From positions 1 through 39,423 of the forward strand of contig JBFXGD010000014.1 of NCBI GenBank assembly GCA_050178385.1: DNA of 39,423 bases, written 5' to 3'. Numbering within the stretch: the stretch's first letter is position 1; each line of letters starts with the position of its first letter. Below are positions 24,001 to 27,000 of this stretch, piece by piece. Made by a program: the position numbers. Origin of the DNA: Calditrichaceae bacterium. Its GTDB lineage: Bacteria > Calditrichota > Calditrichia > Calditrichales > JBFXGD01.

Positions 24001-27000
24001 TATGAACAATTAGACATAATGATTTTTGTTTAGTGTTGAACATCCCGTTGATTAATAATTTAATTTTTTTTCGCCCAGATACCTTTGTAGCTGCTCATGA
24101 AACTCGTTCTGTGCAACAGGTTTCATTAAATAAGCCAGTATTCCCATTGGCAGAGCCTTTTTACATATCGTAATATGTTTATCAGAGAGTACCAGGATCA
24201 CAGGCACCGATCTTTTTAATAATTTTATAATTTTAAGAACATGAATAACCCGTTGTTCCAGTAAATCGATATCGAGAATAACCAGCTCGTAATGATTTGA
24301 AAGAAAACTTTCGAGAAATGTACAACAGGCTCTATAAGACTGGATCTCAAAATTAAAATCCGAATCCGGCTGTCCCTTGAATGTCTCTTCTGCTGTAAGT
24401 ATAATTACATGTTTCATTTCATTCCTAACTTTTAATAGAAATGTAATTACATAAATTGTGCCAAGAATCACAATGTTGGCTATCTTGTTAATAAACAAGT
24501 GGATAAGAGAATTCATAATTATGCGTTTGAATTCCAGATAGAGACAAGATTGTCGCGGTAACGGAAGTGAATTATTCTAAATGGTTGTTATTATGGGGTA
24601 TAGCTATTCGTGACAATAAAAAAGTGGTGGGACACATTTGTCACAGTACAGGTCTGAAATAATAAAAGAAATTATTAGACAACTGAAAATATAGATAAAA
24701 GTGTATATTTTTATTTATATCAGTGTTTAAACTGATGATAAGAAAATACAGTATTCATACTTTTTGCTTAATATCAGAATGTGGATTGAATATTTATTCG
24801 AAATAATAAATATTTTAAAAAGCCTTTCCGCCCGGAGGCGGAAAGGCTTAATCTGAATCGAGGTTTCTTACTTCATCAATATCATTTTCTTCATCGATTC
24901 AAATTGTTTACCATCGTTAGCTGTTACTGTTAGTCGATAGAAATATACACCGGATGAAAGATTTGACGCGATGAATTTTGTGTCATGCGCGCCGGCATTC
25001 ATGTTATCATCAATAAGAGTAGCCACTTTTTGTCCAAGTGTGTTGTAAACCACGAGATTAACATGACCGGATTTCACAAGTGAGAAATGAATGTTTGTTT
25101 TCGGATTGAACGGGTTTGGATAGTTCTGTGACAATGCATAATTCATTGGAATAATATTTACTTCGTCTGAGATTCCCGTTGCATTTAAGGCAGCGATGGA
25201 TTCATTTAGAAGAGCGATAGTATATGCCGGATTGTGGATACCAAAACTTCCGTCTTCCTCAACAAAGAAATAATTGTAACCGGCCTGAGCTTCTACCAAT
25301 GTGACTGATGAGTCATCAATAGCGACTGTCGGTTCACCTTTTGGGGGGAGAAGAAGCGCGAGTTCTTCCAGCAGTCCCTCTACTTCCTGCTGCAATCCTT
25401 CGGCTGTTCCATCACCGTCATGATCAGCGTTTCCGTTGATGTAGTATTTTTTCTCATCAAATGAAGTTCCCACATTGCCATGGCAATCGGCGCACGCGGC
25501 GACGTTGTCCACACCATCAGGTGTGCTCATTGCAAATGAGTGGGATCCGCTTAATATAACTTCACCGCTTTCATCGGCATGTCCGGGATACATATGACAA
25601 TCAACGCAGGCGTTTTCCGTGGCTGCCAGATGCGGAGATGAAGGTAAATCTTTACCAAAAGTCACCGTATTTGTTCCAATGAGCATATCTCCCTGCAAAC
25701 TGCCATGTGGTCCGAAATGGCTGCTCAGATTAGCCAGATAGTCGTTCGTATAAATCTCCGCATCCTGACGGCTTTTATGGCAGTTCATACAAAGTTTGCC
25801 AAGCCCGCCCTGTGTGACAACTTCACCATTGGTTAAAGTTGCTTCAATCGTTCTTACCTGATGCTCATTTGTCACATTATGCGGATCATGACAGGCCGCG
25901 CAGGTAATAGGCAGGTAATCCGTGTTTATGGGAGTGACACCTTTTAAACTTTGGACAAATCCTATACCTGTATGGCATGGAACGCAGGATTCACGATTGG
26001 CACCGGATGGATAGGTGGTGGCGTTGCCATGCAATGAGACATCCCACTGCTCTGGATAGACATGGTGAGTGCCTGAATCATGGCACCAGGCGCAGTTATC
26101 TGCCTTAAGATCAACAATCATCCTGGCGTCGCTGGTATTGCCGTTATGGCGATCACCGGGACCATGGCAGCTTTCACACTGAATTCTTGCCAGTTTCATT
26201 GAATTTGGATAAAGCGCTTCGAGTGCGTCCCAAGTTCCGGGAGCAAGTGAATCAGGGAATGCCCACACAGAATCAATGTCGTCGATTAGCTGAGTGCGGT
26301 CATCAAAGCCGTCGTTTTTGGCCATTAGATCATAGCCGGTTGTATGGCAGCTGACGCAATCCGGGCCATAATGATCACTGGCGGTTCCCATCATTGCTTC
26401 TTCAAATAACCAATAGTGGCCGGTCTGTTCCCAAGGTGTAACCACATCATCCAAAAATGTATCAGGCCCATGGCAATTGGTACAATTTTCATAAACACCG
26501 ACATATTTGCCGGCATTGATGGTCAGTTCGGCTGAAAATGCTCCGTCGGCGAAAGTTATTTTGTATGTACCGGCGATGTCAGGTGTAAAGACAATAACTT
26601 CTGATGAAGTATCCATTACCGCCATCGCGCCGAAGTCAGCCATTGAACCGTTAGGTTTAACGGTGACGCTCCATACAGGATTTGTCAGACTGGCTCCGCT
26701 AAGCGTTCCCTTTAAATACATCTGTGTCTCAATACCGACATTGTTCAATCCGTTAAAAGCCCGGTCAAATATATCTTCCGTATCAGCAACAACATCACGA
26801 GGCGAGACACCATAGGTTTCCAGTTTCATAGTCTGCGCGAAAACCTGTGCAGCGCAGATCAGAAACATGGCCAGAACTAAAAGTAATTTTTTGTTCATAC
26901 TAACCCCTCCGTAATTTGATATGGTAAACCACTTATCTATGATCTTTAATAGCTGTGTAATCGCAGCTATTCATCATATGTCTTTTTCAAGCCTACTGTT

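Follow-up and report, generated by a model that had tools for sequence, protein, structure and literature searches.

A nonahaem OcwA-type cytochrome with a type IX secretion sorting domain points to an undescribed way of placing respiratory cytochromes outside the cell

Extracellular electron transfer is understood chiefly from Shewanella and Geobacter, in which the outer cytochromes are lipoproteins delivered by type II secretion or members of porin-cytochrome complexes. Are there other ways for a diderm bacterium to place a haem-loaded respiratory protein on its surface? A gene of a Calditrichaceae bacterium (assembly GCA_050178385.1) raises this question, as its predicted product joins nine haem-binding motifs to a type A tail of the type IX secretion system, or T9SS. 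The window analysed here is the whole stretch of 39,423 nucleotides of contig JBFXGD010000014.1 in which this gene lies.

The gene occupies 24868..26898 on the minus strand, with its stop codon at 24868-24870, and is assigned to a c-type cytochrome of nine haems that ends in a T9SS type A tail, from its reading frame, translation, CxxCH motifs, and Pfam and NCBIfam matches. The reading frame, which a first-pass annotation had given without a strand, is real and encodes 676 amino acids. Both the translation and a predicted model (AlphaFold, mean pLDDT 86.1, modelled without haems) place a Sec signal at the N-terminus: residues 1-21 (MNKKLLLVLAMFLICAAQVFA; 26836..26898, minus strand) read as a signal peptide, with a helix over residues 2-19, that signal peptidase I would cut before Q22, a residue kept in 64 of 68 aligned homologues. 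A lipobox reading of Cys15 was rejected, since the -1 position in FLIC is Ile and homologues do not conserve the Cys. The signal is followed by an N-terminal beta-sandwich domain (residues 23-130; 26509..26832, minus strand), the strands of which are modelled at a pLDDT of about 90, and by a core of the OcwA type (residues 135-573; 25180..26496, minus strand), delimited by profile, VIA and Foldseek comparisons and made of a nine-haem domain and a C-terminal three-helix bundle (helices 502-516, 534-549, and 557-573). A linker predicted to be disordered (residues 575-586, pLDDT < 50) leads to the T9SS type A C-terminal sorting domain (CTD; residues 587-676; 24871..25140, minus strand).

Is the product a cytochrome? 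CxxCH occurs nine times, at residues 139, 181, 241, 269, 305, 333, 370, 431, and 469, exactly where the first-pass annotation had placed the motifs, and all 18 Cys residues outside the signal peptide fall within them. By chance such motifs are rare: when the protein was shuffled 2000 times, the mean count was 0.018 and the highest 1. Nine His residues outside the motifs are conserved in 68 homologues, in which M234 and M436 are invariant. Genes for cytochrome c maturation are also encoded, PF01578 being above its cut-off at three places in the genome, two of which adjoin each other on contig C116 as frames of CcmF size (752 aa) and CcmC size (237 aa). The sequence thus supports, in silico, a true c-type cytochrome of the multihaem kind that carries a Sec signal.

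The tail likewise appears genuine. Por_Secre_tail (PF18962) covers residues 593-660 at 38.4 bits against a cut-off of 27, close to the 37.4 bits noted earlier, TIGR04183 scores 39.4 bits against a cut-off of 23, and an HMM built iteratively from the tails of the genome's own proteins covers residues 586-676 (E 3.7e-26). This last HMM finds 57 C-terminal tails in the genome; the studied one ranks 29th, and the best 20 scorers are annotated as typical secreted hydrolase- and adhesin-like proteins. On a recount, 26 open reading frames carry at least four CxxCH, and the claim that only one of them has a T9SS tail holds; the studied protein is also the only one with any CxxCH among the 57 tailed proteins. 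In the model, the CTD forms seven strands over residues 587-674 and resembles the CTDs of PorU (6za2_B, Z 9.5, 22% identity) and mirolase (8qb1, Z 8.7), with generic Ig-like domains scoring alike. Across 68 homologues NxPNPFNPxT, G, G, GxY, and K are invariant. Sequence and model together support, computationally, a bona fide CTD of type A that folds as a beta-sandwich and is strongly conserved. The idea that the tail evolves in concert with the other tails of its host was considered and rejected: it is 52-54% identical to the best tails of its own genome, against 50-60% to the tails of orthologues.

The genome also encodes machinery that could recognise such a tail. SprA (885.6 bits, summed), PorU (818.1 bits against a cut-off of 420), and PorV (272.3 bits against 250) all exceed their cut-offs, in agreement with the first-pass annotation. 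Searches of this genome (94% complete) with NCBIfam and Pfam models, run with no positive control, gave no match to GldM (two models) or GldN, an E of 0.03 for GldL, and 95 bits against a cut-off of 350 for GldK; GldM was also without a match, again with no positive control, in 10 further genomes that bear the cytochrome family, including ones labelled Cytophagia, Rhodothermales, and Bacteroidetes. Haem is attached to c-type cytochromes in the periplasm only, so a functional tail would imply that the protein is exported in its haem-loaded state.

How widespread is the union of cytochrome and tail? The tail is present in 121 of 121 sequences (the query and its best 120 database matches) and in 73 of 80 loci, which lie in Ignavibacteria, KSB1, Fidelibacterota, Gemmatimonadota, Latescibacterota, and other lineages. 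Within Calditrichota, full-length matches (E <= 1e-108) were found in 14 of 86 genomes, the same count as before, and a partial type covering query residues 235-570 occurs in 6 more. The family is nevertheless not confined to this phylum, as had been supposed; it extends across many FCB phyla, and the fusion is far wider than earlier recorded. Seven loci have no tail. The two with intact homologues belong to Verrucomicrobiota and Acidobacteriota; the other five are cut, masked, or fragmented. SprA is absent from both of these genomes and present in the three tail-bearing genomes tested; that is, in 5 of 5 genomes tested, the tail occurs with the SprA translocon and is absent without it, an association supported in silico.

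This distribution bears on whether the protein leaves the periplasm at all. The tail might be unused in this lineage, or SprA, PorU, and PorV might fail to export without a detectable GldKLMN motor, and the missing Gld matches, for what searches without a positive control can say, would fit this. So would the neighbouring tail-less paralogue and the tail-less homologues elsewhere, which show that the core can work without a tail, and the silence of the literature. Known T9SS cargo, in the portions of the literature available, comprises hydrolases, adhesins, S-layer proteins, and the non-covalent haem binder HBP35; a 2023 review of T9SS effectors, in the part available, lists no covalently haem-loaded redox protein; and the open-access literature yielded no description of T9SS-tailed multihaem cytochromes. 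The Caldithrix genome paper does not mention T9SS terms, and a Melioribacter multi-omics paper, in the passages retrieved by term search, treats oxygen and arsenate respiration with no mention of multihaem, secretion, or extracellular. However, the tail motif residues are invariant in 68 homologues from several phyla, the tail is missing from intact loci just where SprA is missing, and the same tail is borne by 56 other proteins of the genome, a persistence not expected of a dead signal. Retention in the periplasm is therefore very unlikely in our judgement.

What might the protein do once outside? Its core has an informative relative in OcwA, the cell-surface terminal reductase of the Gram-positive electricigen Thermincola potens JR. 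In addition to a phmmer match to OcwA (E 8e-7), profile searches against the PDB match 6i5b (E 1.8e-19, with five stretches aligning between haem 1 and the final helix) and 6qvm (E 2.3e-8). VIA superposes residues 130-572 of the model on residues 43-525 of the 6i5b chain (Z 14.4, rmsd 3.8, 328 residues) and gives the same Z of 14.4 for 6qvm over 338 residues with 26% identity; Foldseek returns 6i5b at E 1.9e-8 and a TM (target) of 0.49. Profile and model thereby lend in silico support to membership of the core in the OcwA/OmhA family of surface terminal reductases in Gram-positive metal reducers. Membership in the MtrC/OmcA family was rejected, given the missing lipobox, nine haems where a decahaem protein would be expected, and a Pfam MtrC-MtrF_II-IV match (42.6 bits against a cut-off of 30) that is local only; in the fold search OcwA and OmhA came first and no MtrC entry was among the matches listed, a likeness of fold being still possible.

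The His-His pockets of OcwA haems 2 and 5 align with H278-H279 and H394/H398, and H278, H279, H394, and H398 are kept in 55, 64, 60, and 66 of 68 homologues, respectively. Two extra conserved His residues (H398 and H423) could close the open sites, as judged from a model that contains no haems. A pure wire of nine bis-His haems was considered and rejected, as the open haems of OcwA carry the same His-His motifs. Because these OcwA-type pockets are conserved, soluble substrates are possible, and the protein may be exported by the T9SS but work as an extracellular or surface enzyme for soluble compounds (nitrite, hydroxylamine, sulfur oxyanions) or in detoxification, not as an outlet to solids. 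OcwA itself reduces nitrite and turns over hydroxylamine in vitro through its open-haem pockets, although its nitrite turnover is very low (kcat 1 per min). The fold and three-helix bundle are common with NrfA (VIA Z 12.9) and octahaem nitrite reductase (Z 12.8), profiles of which match residues 416-570 at E of about 1e-8, and one member of the cluster, P0054, is named a c552 nitrite reductase subunit by NCBI; but the catalytic CxxCK motif is absent, leaving the periplasm would bring no gain for soluble anions, and, among solved structures, the two nearest relatives belong to metal reducers, which use them as surface reductases. We hold such an enzymatic role to be improbable. Identity with NrfA nitrite reductase was rejected, both for want of the catalytic CxxCK and for scores far under equivalog cut-offs (NrfB and NrfH models of NCBIfam, 11-17 bits against 134-310).

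Genes around the family offer a further view of its electron partners. Next to the studied gene, the window has neither a barrel nor a periplasmic cytochrome. Of the 14 Calditrichota genomes with the gene, 4 place a barrel gene 2-7 kb away, three of these barrels being of the 22-strand outer-membrane C7 type; the barrel of G017 is a paralogue of the C7 barrel (28% identical), and that of G044 is accompanied by 12-, 9-, 10-, and 5-haem cytochromes and an ImcH-like protein. More widely, among the 80 loci, 9 have ImcH-like genes nearby, 11 have a Wzi-like barrel directly upstream, and in 67 all three barrel candidates are missing within 8 kb. No barrel emerged as an obligatory partner: of the 14 genomes that have the gene, 6 encode the 655-aa C4 barrel and 11 the 398-aa C7 barrel, as do 26 and 45, respectively, of the 72 that lack it; the difference for C7 is a weak enrichment among kin that are not independent. 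Three genomes (G002, G004, and G026; 96-99% complete) have the gene, and queries with C4 and C7 found neither barrel in them. This last finding suits an enzyme for soluble compounds, whereas the linkage of ImcH-like and barrel-cytochrome genes at some loci speaks against one and for a link to electron export.

The studied genome itself holds two porin-cytochrome-like clusters and other candidate outer cytochromes. To name the protein this lineage's terminal reductase for extracellular electron transfer, as the first-pass annotation did, goes too far, because the gene is in only 14 of 86 genomes of the phylum and other candidate outlets are encoded. Further points against that description are that neither barrel co-occurs strictly with the gene and that the open-haem pockets leave soluble substrates possible.

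When would the cytochrome be made? Directly upstream lies a gene for a stand-alone CheY-like receiver (26974..27363, minus strand; Response_reg 28.6 bits, cut-off 30.2), which likely starts at the ATG at 27363, not at the TTG at 27414. Its family (32 sequences) keeps D53/D55, S82, and K103-P104; a member stands directly upstream in 23 of 80 loci, and the cluster occurs in 27. A sigma-54-type -24/-12 promoter (TGGCACAATATATGTA; 27398..27413, minus strand) precedes the receiver ATG by 35 nt, and two enhancer-like palindromes, GACAA-N2-TTGTC, lie upstream of its -24 element, at distances of about 80-90 nt (27492-27503) and 168-179 nt (27581-27592). The arrangement recurs further along the same strand, where a second sigma-54-type promoter (TGGCACAATTTATGTA; 24448..24463, minus strand) lies 31 nt before a second stand-alone receiver gene of the same family (24052..24417, minus strand, likely ATG at 24417; Response_reg 36.1 bits), with palindromes at 24543-24554 (perfect) and 24631-24642 (one mismatch) at equal spacing to the -24 element. 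TGGCAC-N5-ATGTA occurs twice, with GT, not GC, as its -12 element. Palindromes with at most one mismatch number 8 in the window against 1.54 expected, and all three perfect ones fall in the two promoter regions. Of the 80 loci, 21 have a relaxed sigma-54 pattern upstream, where about 1.2 would be expected, and among the 23 that carry a receiver gene 14 have it. Conservation of the palindrome beyond the genus was rejected; present at only 3 of the 21 sigma-54 sites, it is lineage-specific.

Divergent from these genes, a HAMP histidine kinase (27746..29221, plus strand; HATPase_c, HAMP, HisKA, and PF21563 Mcp40H-20_sensor at 28.6 bits) is followed by an NtrC-type sigma-54 activator with receiver, AAA+ Sigma54_activat, and HTH_8 domains (29223..30596, plus strand; Sigma54_activat E 6.8e-67), and this pair forms one cluster in 35 of 80 loci. 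The kinase has a single CxxCH, CHTCH at residue 144 (nt 28175-28189), in a loop between two hydrophobic segments; one such motif, at about 114-166 and mostly about 144, is found in 26 of 26 full-length orthologous kinases near family members. The kinase is probably a periplasmic haem-c sensor. If a c-type haem is bound in its periplasmic domain, production of the cytochrome would respond to the periplasmic redox state, with sigma-54 driving transcription and the neighbouring activator acting from the enhancer palindromes.

These elements outline two tandem putative sigma-54 operons, newly recognised here, each with a receiver gene and a nonahaem cytochrome and both with the same palindromes. 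The first probably ends at a hairpin (24820..24849, minus strand; 13-bp stem, 4-nt loop, then TTTAAAA) 19 nt past the cytochrome stop codon, which is absent from the terminator-scan output and was read from the sequence directly; the second is closed by a bidirectional intrinsic terminator (22182..22210; 13-bp stem, T runs on both strands). The cytochrome of the second operon is the tail-less paralogue (22246..23982 from its likely start, within an open reading frame of 22246-24009, minus strand), which also has nine CxxCH and is 33% identical to the studied protein over 508 columns (E 2e-60). Both it and the receiver genes had been reported earlier and are present. Its likely N-terminus, MLRRLISVV...LFFGGC with an acidic TDETEK after the Cys, suggests a lipoprotein, and its orthologues adjoin a barrel in G067 and G045. 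Downstream are genes for Rnf and for 2-oxoacid:ferredoxin oxidoreductase.

How could these parts work together? The reading we prefer, to which we grant slightly better than an even chance, is that this OcwA-type nonahaem cytochrome is a T9SS cargo that acts outside the cell as OcwA and OmhA do. The protein would enter the periplasm by its Sec signal and be cut before Q22, and the Ccm system, the genes of which were found, would attach nine haems. PorV and SprA would then recognise the type A CTD and let the folded holo-protein cross the outer membrane; by analogy with Bacteroidota, PorU would remove the tail, and the protein would be fixed to a surface glycolipid or released. Electrons may pass from menaquinol through ImcH/CbcL-like inner-membrane cytochromes and periplasmic multihaem cytochromes to a barrel-cytochrome conduit, components that are all encoded elsewhere in the genome. 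Outside, the nine-haem chain, with two probably open-site haems at its ends, would hand respiratory electrons to acceptors unable to enter the cell, such as Fe/Mn oxides, humics, shuttles, or partner cells. Of the earlier proposal, the cytochrome with a Sec signal and a T9SS tail stands; haem-loaded export to the surface is kept as a reading that the sequence and the predicted model favour.

The direction of flow could also be reversed. A surface-exposed protein might take up electrons from Fe(II), reduced minerals, cathodes, or a syntrophic partner, or store electrons outside the cell. A multihaem chain can run either way and sequence does not fix its direction, the gene cluster stands under a redox-type haem sensor, and the downstream genes for Rnf and 2-oxoacid:ferredoxin oxidoreductase are in keeping with an anaerobe balancing its reductant. 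We give this little credence, as the nearest characterised relatives act as reductases; the window shows no iron-oxidation marker of the Cyc2 or MtoA type, although no search was aimed at these; moreover, it is a variant of the outward-reductase reading, not a separate mechanism.

Beyond this locus, the T9SS may be a general third route for exporting haem-loaded cytochromes in diderms, in addition to porin-cytochrome assembly and to the type II secretion of cytochromes that are lipoproteins. In this generalization, which we regard as evenly balanced, a family of hundreds, tandem 18-haem forms included, would use the T9SS in Calditrichota, Ignavibacteria, KSB1, Fidelibacterota, Gemmatimonadota, Latescibacterota, and other FCB lineages, and would be switched on by a dedicated circuit of periplasmic haem-c sensor kinase, NtrC-type activator, sigma-54 promoter, and co-transcribed receiver. 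If so, respiratory cytochromes would have a new export route, T9SS cargo would extend to covalently cofactor-loaded redox proteins, the SprA translocon would be able to pass such a cofactor-laden protein, and much of the uncultured sediment FCB group would be electroactive. An OcwA-type core joined to a CTD would then mark likely electroactive members of abundant uncultured phyla in sediment, aquifer, and sludge, and the haem-c sensor kinase with its sigma-54 activator offers a testable handle on when the system is switched on.

Among known systems, OcwA of T. potens JR (6I5B) is close in form: nine CxxCH in identical order, a globular haem domain with a C-terminal three-helix bundle, 26% identity over the whole chain, and aligned distal His ligands and His-His pockets. 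It differs in having no T9SS tail and in sitting on a Gram-positive wall, whereas the host here is a diderm; the N-terminal beta-sandwich (23-130), the linker, and the type A CTD are additions in the studied protein, the invariant H423 of which has no aligned His in OcwA. OmhA (6QVM), the undecahaem S-layer cytochrome of Carboxydothermus ferrireducens, is alike in fold and as an outer-surface reductase, but has eleven haems, an S-layer-binding part, no CTD, and a Gram-positive host. NrfA and the octahaem nitrite reductases have a similar helix bundle and haem packing, and the studied protein departs from them in its nine haems, none of the CxxCK kind.

MtrC, OmcA, and MtrF of the Shewanella MtrCAB system are lipoproteins that type II secretion delivers and that dock on the MtrAB barrel. 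They resemble the studied protein in proposed role, with haem loading in the periplasm, crossing of the outer membrane, and a position facing minerals, and they are set apart from it by its signal of the signal peptidase I type and its T9SS tail. The OmaB-OmbB-OmcB system of Geobacter finds a parallel in the barrel-plus-multihaem clusters of this genome, and the tail-less lipoprotein paralogue would be an OmcB-like partner; the T9SS-tailed protein, however, lacks a signal for lipid anchoring, and a separate machine would bring it to the surface. Classical T9SS type A cargo (gingipains, ChiA, mirolase, and HBP35 of P. gingivalis), finally, has the same combination of Sec signal and beta-sandwich CTD with NPF...GxY...K motifs, and PorU, PorV, and SprA, with which such cargo is associated, are present here.

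The source assembly, from a Calditrichaceae bacterium (3.89 Mb in 320 contigs, 94% complete; the window is contig C14), carries on its minus strand an open reading frame at 24868..26898 for a 676-aa c-type cytochrome that ends in a type IX secretion system (T9SS) type A sorting domain, referred to here as the tailed cytochrome. Its nine CxxCH motifs lie where the first-pass annotation had placed them, and all cysteines beyond the signal peptide belong to such motifs; 2000 shuffles of the protein yielded a mean of 0.018 CxxCH and a maximum of one. Pfam assigns Cytochrome_C7 (E 1e-12), the MtrC/MtrF II-IV domain (42.6 bits) and, at residues 593-660, Por_Secre_tail (38.4 bits, cut-off 27), and NCBIfam adds TIGR04183 (39.4 bits, cut-off 23). 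The earlier counts of 26 reading frames with four or more CxxCH in this genome and of 14 out of 86 Calditrichota genomes with the full-length gene were both reproduced. Among the 57 C-terminal tails detected with an HMM built iteratively on the genome's own tails, only this one is joined to a CxxCH protein, in line with the earlier claim that it alone of those 26 has a T9SS domain.

An AlphaFold model built from an alignment (pLDDT 86.1, pTM 0.73) comprises an N-terminal signal helix, a beta-sandwich (residues 23-130), a haem core (135-500), three helices (502-573), a disordered linker (575-586) and a further beta-sandwich (587-674). In sequence searches the top-ranked solved structure is 6i5b (E 8e-7 with a single query, 1.8e-19 with a 68-homologue profile); 6qvm matches at 2.3e-8 and NrfA at about 1e-8 in the C-terminal part. 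Passages of the OcwA paper identify 6I5B as OcwA, which is proposed to act as terminal reductase on the cell surface of Thermincola potens; the protein has nine haems and combines a globular haem domain with a three-helix bundle. Structure comparison points the same way: the top Foldseek match was OcwA (E 1.9e-8), followed by OmhA of Carboxydothermus ferrireducens (6e-7), and an exhaustive VIA search returned both at Z 14.4, with OcwA aligned over 328 residues (rmsd 3.8, 26% identity; model 130-572 against chain 43-525). NrfA (Z 12.9) and octahaem nitrite reductase (Z 12.8) occupy lower ranks in the same search. Such matches would suit a secreted enzyme acting on soluble nitrogen or sulfur compounds; the two surface reductases outrank them, and we consider such an enzyme unlikely.

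The OcwA-like character probably extends to the haem environment. Nine non-motif histidines (161, 251, 279, 290, 340, 398, 423, 453 and 555) are invariant or nearly so in the 68 homologues, and M234 and M436 are invariant. Excerpts on OcwA describe open distal sites at haems 2 and 5, lined by the His-His motifs 281/282 and 380/381. In HMMER alignments, whose OcwA numbering is offset by 29, these motifs align with H278-H279 and H394/H398 of the tailed cytochrome, and H278, H279, H394 and H398 are kept in 55, 64, 60 and 66 of the 68 sequences, respectively. Because these open-haem motifs are conserved in the alignment, the protein cannot be called a pure bis-His wire, and that label was dropped; it probably keeps the mixed haem chemistry of OcwA.

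The tail has its own conserved positions, with N592, P594-P599, T601, G622, G636, G650, Y652 and K671 invariant in the 68-sequence alignment. It scores mid-range among the tails of the source genome, shares 52-54% identity with the best of these, and as a model matches the C-terminal domains of PorU (Z 9.5, 22% identity) and mirolase (Z 8.7), amid many generic Ig-like domains. By annotation, the genome's 20 best-scoring tailed proteins resemble ordinary secreted proteins (protease-like, phosphatase, nuclease, esterase, lectin, beta-helix and one PQQ-type dehydrogenase). Beside the tailed cytochrome, a second redox-type cargo of the source genome is a tailed protein of glucose/sorbosone dehydrogenase type (GSDH, PQQ family, E 1.2e-48) encoded at G000:C130:1186-2682 (locus L127). 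Some of the machinery for export and maturation is encoded: SprA, PorU and PorV each score above their curated cut-offs, and Ccm-type genes were found. The proteins of the motor and ring were not found: GldK scores 95 bits (cut-off 350) and GldL has an E of 0.03; in this 94% complete genome, two GldM models and GldN gave no match. GldM also had no match in ten other family-carrying genomes, a set in which none matched, which leaves no positive control and does not establish absence. As a side observation, PorV/PorP-like barrel genes (50-80 bits with the PorV model) directly adjoin weaker-scoring tailed cargo genes on contigs C72, C232, C210, C12, C47, C49, C149 and C128 of the source genome, an arrangement suggestive of cargo genes with dedicated partners, as in SprB/SprF.

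In-silico support for the predicted targeting is strong. The T9SS would export the tailed cytochrome, and PorU would then process and anchor it. Since c-type cytochromes receive their haem in the periplasm only, a functional tail would mean that the transport substrate is folded and loaded with haem. A periplasmic protein whose tail goes unused could accommodate the lack of Gld matches above cut-off, less readily the invariant tail residues and the 56 other tailed proteins of the genome, and we regard it as improbable.

The fusion of cytochrome and tail is conserved far outside the source genome. A word-indexed search gave 1687 relatives out of 8000 scored candidates, and PF18962 was present in all 120 matches listed, the best 120 of these relatives. 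With the own-genome tail HMM, the tail was terminal in 121/121 sequences (the query plus these 120 matches). Nine CxxCH are the rule (108 sequences), beside counts of eight in six sequences and seven in two; the other five are 18-haem tandems. These tandems (proteins P0003, P0004, P0038, P0040 and P0111; also locus L023) join two nonahaem modules to a single T9SS tail in about 1060-1100 aa. Source names among the listed relatives include Calditrichota, KSB1, Ignavibacteriaceae, Fidelibacterota and 'FCB group'. When the tail-less core was used as query, an exhaustive HMMER search yielded 2185 clusters at E <= 1e-3, of which 434 remained at <= 1e-30; the T9SS tail was present in 68 of the best 150 representatives, and the others end after the helix bundle or have other C-terminal ends. 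One non-T9SS end, '...F[YF]RV..P', recurs among the core homologues, and a second group ends '...DYPD..LRGPV...W'; in the homologues listed for such extensions (P0155, P0166, P0168, P0181, P0184, P0201, P0205, P0220, P0237, P0255 and P0260), the nonahaem core may bear alternative address tags.

Fate of the tail was followed in 80 loci from species genomes of Ignavibacteriales, Melioribacteraceae, KSB1, Neomarinimicrobiota/Fidelibacterota, Latescibacterota, Gemmatimonadota, Rhodothermales and others. The tail ends the best match in 73 of them; the remaining seven include two that run off the available DNA, one masked with the motif visible, two fragmented and two intact. The intact proteins are from Puniceicoccaceae, with a different 90-aa end, and from Bryobacteraceae, stopping after the helix bundle. 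SprA is absent in both of these genomes and present in all three tail-bearing genomes tested, so that tail and SprA concord in 5/5 genomes, a small sample. A tailed copy also occurs on a contig labelled Caldisericaceae (L028), and another on a contig filed under Syntrophomonadaceae, whose 698-aa protein shares its length and a near-identical N-terminus with one from an Ignavibacteria bin (L095 versus L094); both are probably binning errors.

In the window, the tailed cytochrome is the second gene of a two-gene unit that opens with a stand-alone receiver (ATG at 27363), and a 13-bp hairpin lies 3' of its stop codon. A second unit consists of another receiver (ATG at 24417), a tail-less nonahaem paralogue (22246-23982, minus strand; 33% identical to the tailed cytochrome) and a bidirectional terminator. 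The start of the paralogue likely gives a lipoprotein signal (LFFGGC). An acidic TDETEK immediately follows the lipoprotein-like Cys, and we take this to resemble the surface-lipoprotein export signal of Bacteroidota.

Nearly identical sigma-54-type elements stand before the two units, TGGCACAAT[A/T]TATGTA (27398-27413 before the first unit, 24448-24463 before the second); the relaxed pattern has four matches in the window versus 0.86 expected. Both promoter regions also hold enhancer-like sites, two GACAA-N2-TTGTC palindromes per unit at equal distances (about 80-90 and 168-179 nt upstream), and the three perfect copies in the window all fall within these two regions. Divergent from the first unit are genes for a HAMP histidine kinase and an NtrC-type sigma-54 activator. 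The kinase (27746-29221, plus strand) matches the Mcp40H-20 sensor family and has a single CxxCH (CHTCH, residue 144; 28175-28189) in the probable periplasmic loop between two hydrophobic segments, which suggests that the tailed cytochrome would be made under a periplasmic redox sensor, via sigma-54. Downstream of the regulatory genes, at 31820-39286 on the plus strand, lie the gene pair of a 2-oxoacid:ferredoxin oxidoreductase and an rnf operon that looks complete (RseC-like, RnfB, C, D, G, E/A). At 34 nt ahead of the first rnf gene (RseC-like, 34584), TGGTACAATATTTGTA (34535-34550, plus strand) forms a third sigma-54-like element that closely resembles those of the two cytochrome units; in the window scan, no GACAA-N2-TTGTC palindrome accompanies it.

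Outside the genus, too, this receiver/kinase/activator/sigma-54 architecture is widely kept. Members of the receiver family, with phospho-acceptor Asp, Ser and Lys-Pro all kept, occur in 27/80 loci and directly upstream of the cytochrome in 23; the kinase/activator pair occurs in 35/80, and the single CxxCH is retained in 26/26 full-length orthologous kinases adjoining family members. Sigma-54-type elements lie upstream in 21/80 loci versus about 1.2 expected by chance (an arithmetic estimate), including 14 of the 23 with the receiver directly upstream. The palindrome is lineage-specific, accompanying 3 of the 21 sites.

Candidates for electron supply are encoded elsewhere in the source genome. 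Contig C7 has two CbcL-like proteins, in which multihaem domains are fused to FdnI-type cytochrome b, and C6 an ImcH-like NrfH-domain cytochrome. A C4 cluster combines a DmsE-like protein with 13 haems, lipoprotein cytochromes and a 655-aa protein (the C4 barrel) that bears a signal and ends in Phe; in a C7 cluster, 12-haem and 9-haem cytochromes flank a 398-aa protein (the C7 barrel) whose predicted fold is an outer-membrane barrel of 22 strands, with porin-like matches. In 4/14 Calditrichota genomes, 2-7 kb separate the tailed cytochrome gene from a barrel gene, the barrel being of C7 type in G039, G040 and G044 and a 28%-identical paralogue in G017; in G044 the barrel shares one block with cytochromes of 12, 10, 9, 5 and 3 haems, an ImcH-like gene and the genes for the haem kinase and the activator. 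Among the 80 wider loci, nine have an ImcH-like gene within 8 kb, two a C7-type barrel, and 11 a Wzi-like barrel (561 aa, PF14052, E 8e-11) directly upstream on the same strand at about 280 nt. The Wzi-like loci (L032, L045, L050, L053, L056, L059, L063-L065, L068 and L069) are all from Ignavibacteriales.

Gene counts speak against a fixed barrel partnership: the C4 barrel occurs in 6/14 genomes with the tailed cytochrome versus 26/72 others, the C7 barrel in 11/14 versus 45/72, and neither was found in three near-complete genomes that have the gene. Paralogue-type orthologues adjoin a C7-type barrel in genomes G067 and G045, so the paralogue would fit as a classical lipoprotein partner of a porin-cytochrome complex. 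For the tailed cytochrome, we infer both an electron path to it and its substrate. Multihaem chains can run in either direction; the nearest characterised relatives act as reductases, and we give reversed electron flow little credence.

Taken together, we lean towards an OcwA-type cytochrome that is exported by the T9SS and either held at the surface or released for extracellular electron exchange. Full-text searches of open-access papers found none linking type IX secretion with multihaem cytochromes. 'Sorting domain' and 'multiheme' met in an archaeal review on an unrelated topic, and T9SS and extracellular electron transfer in a review of OMVs; among the matches listed, only a Methylococcus secretome paper mixed T9SS and cytochrome terms. 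The Caldithrix genome paper contains no T9SS terms. Excerpts of the Chocolate Pots paper report Geobacter-like pcc porins in Ignavibacteriales and Caldithrix and hold no secretion terms. In the excerpted 2023 review of T9SS effectors, the cargo comprises proteases, CAZymes, adhesins, S-layer proteins and haem-binding HBP35, with no cytochromes among them. Set beside these systems, the tailed cytochrome is a real feature, a predicted surface multihaem cytochrome whose putative export route is previously unreported.
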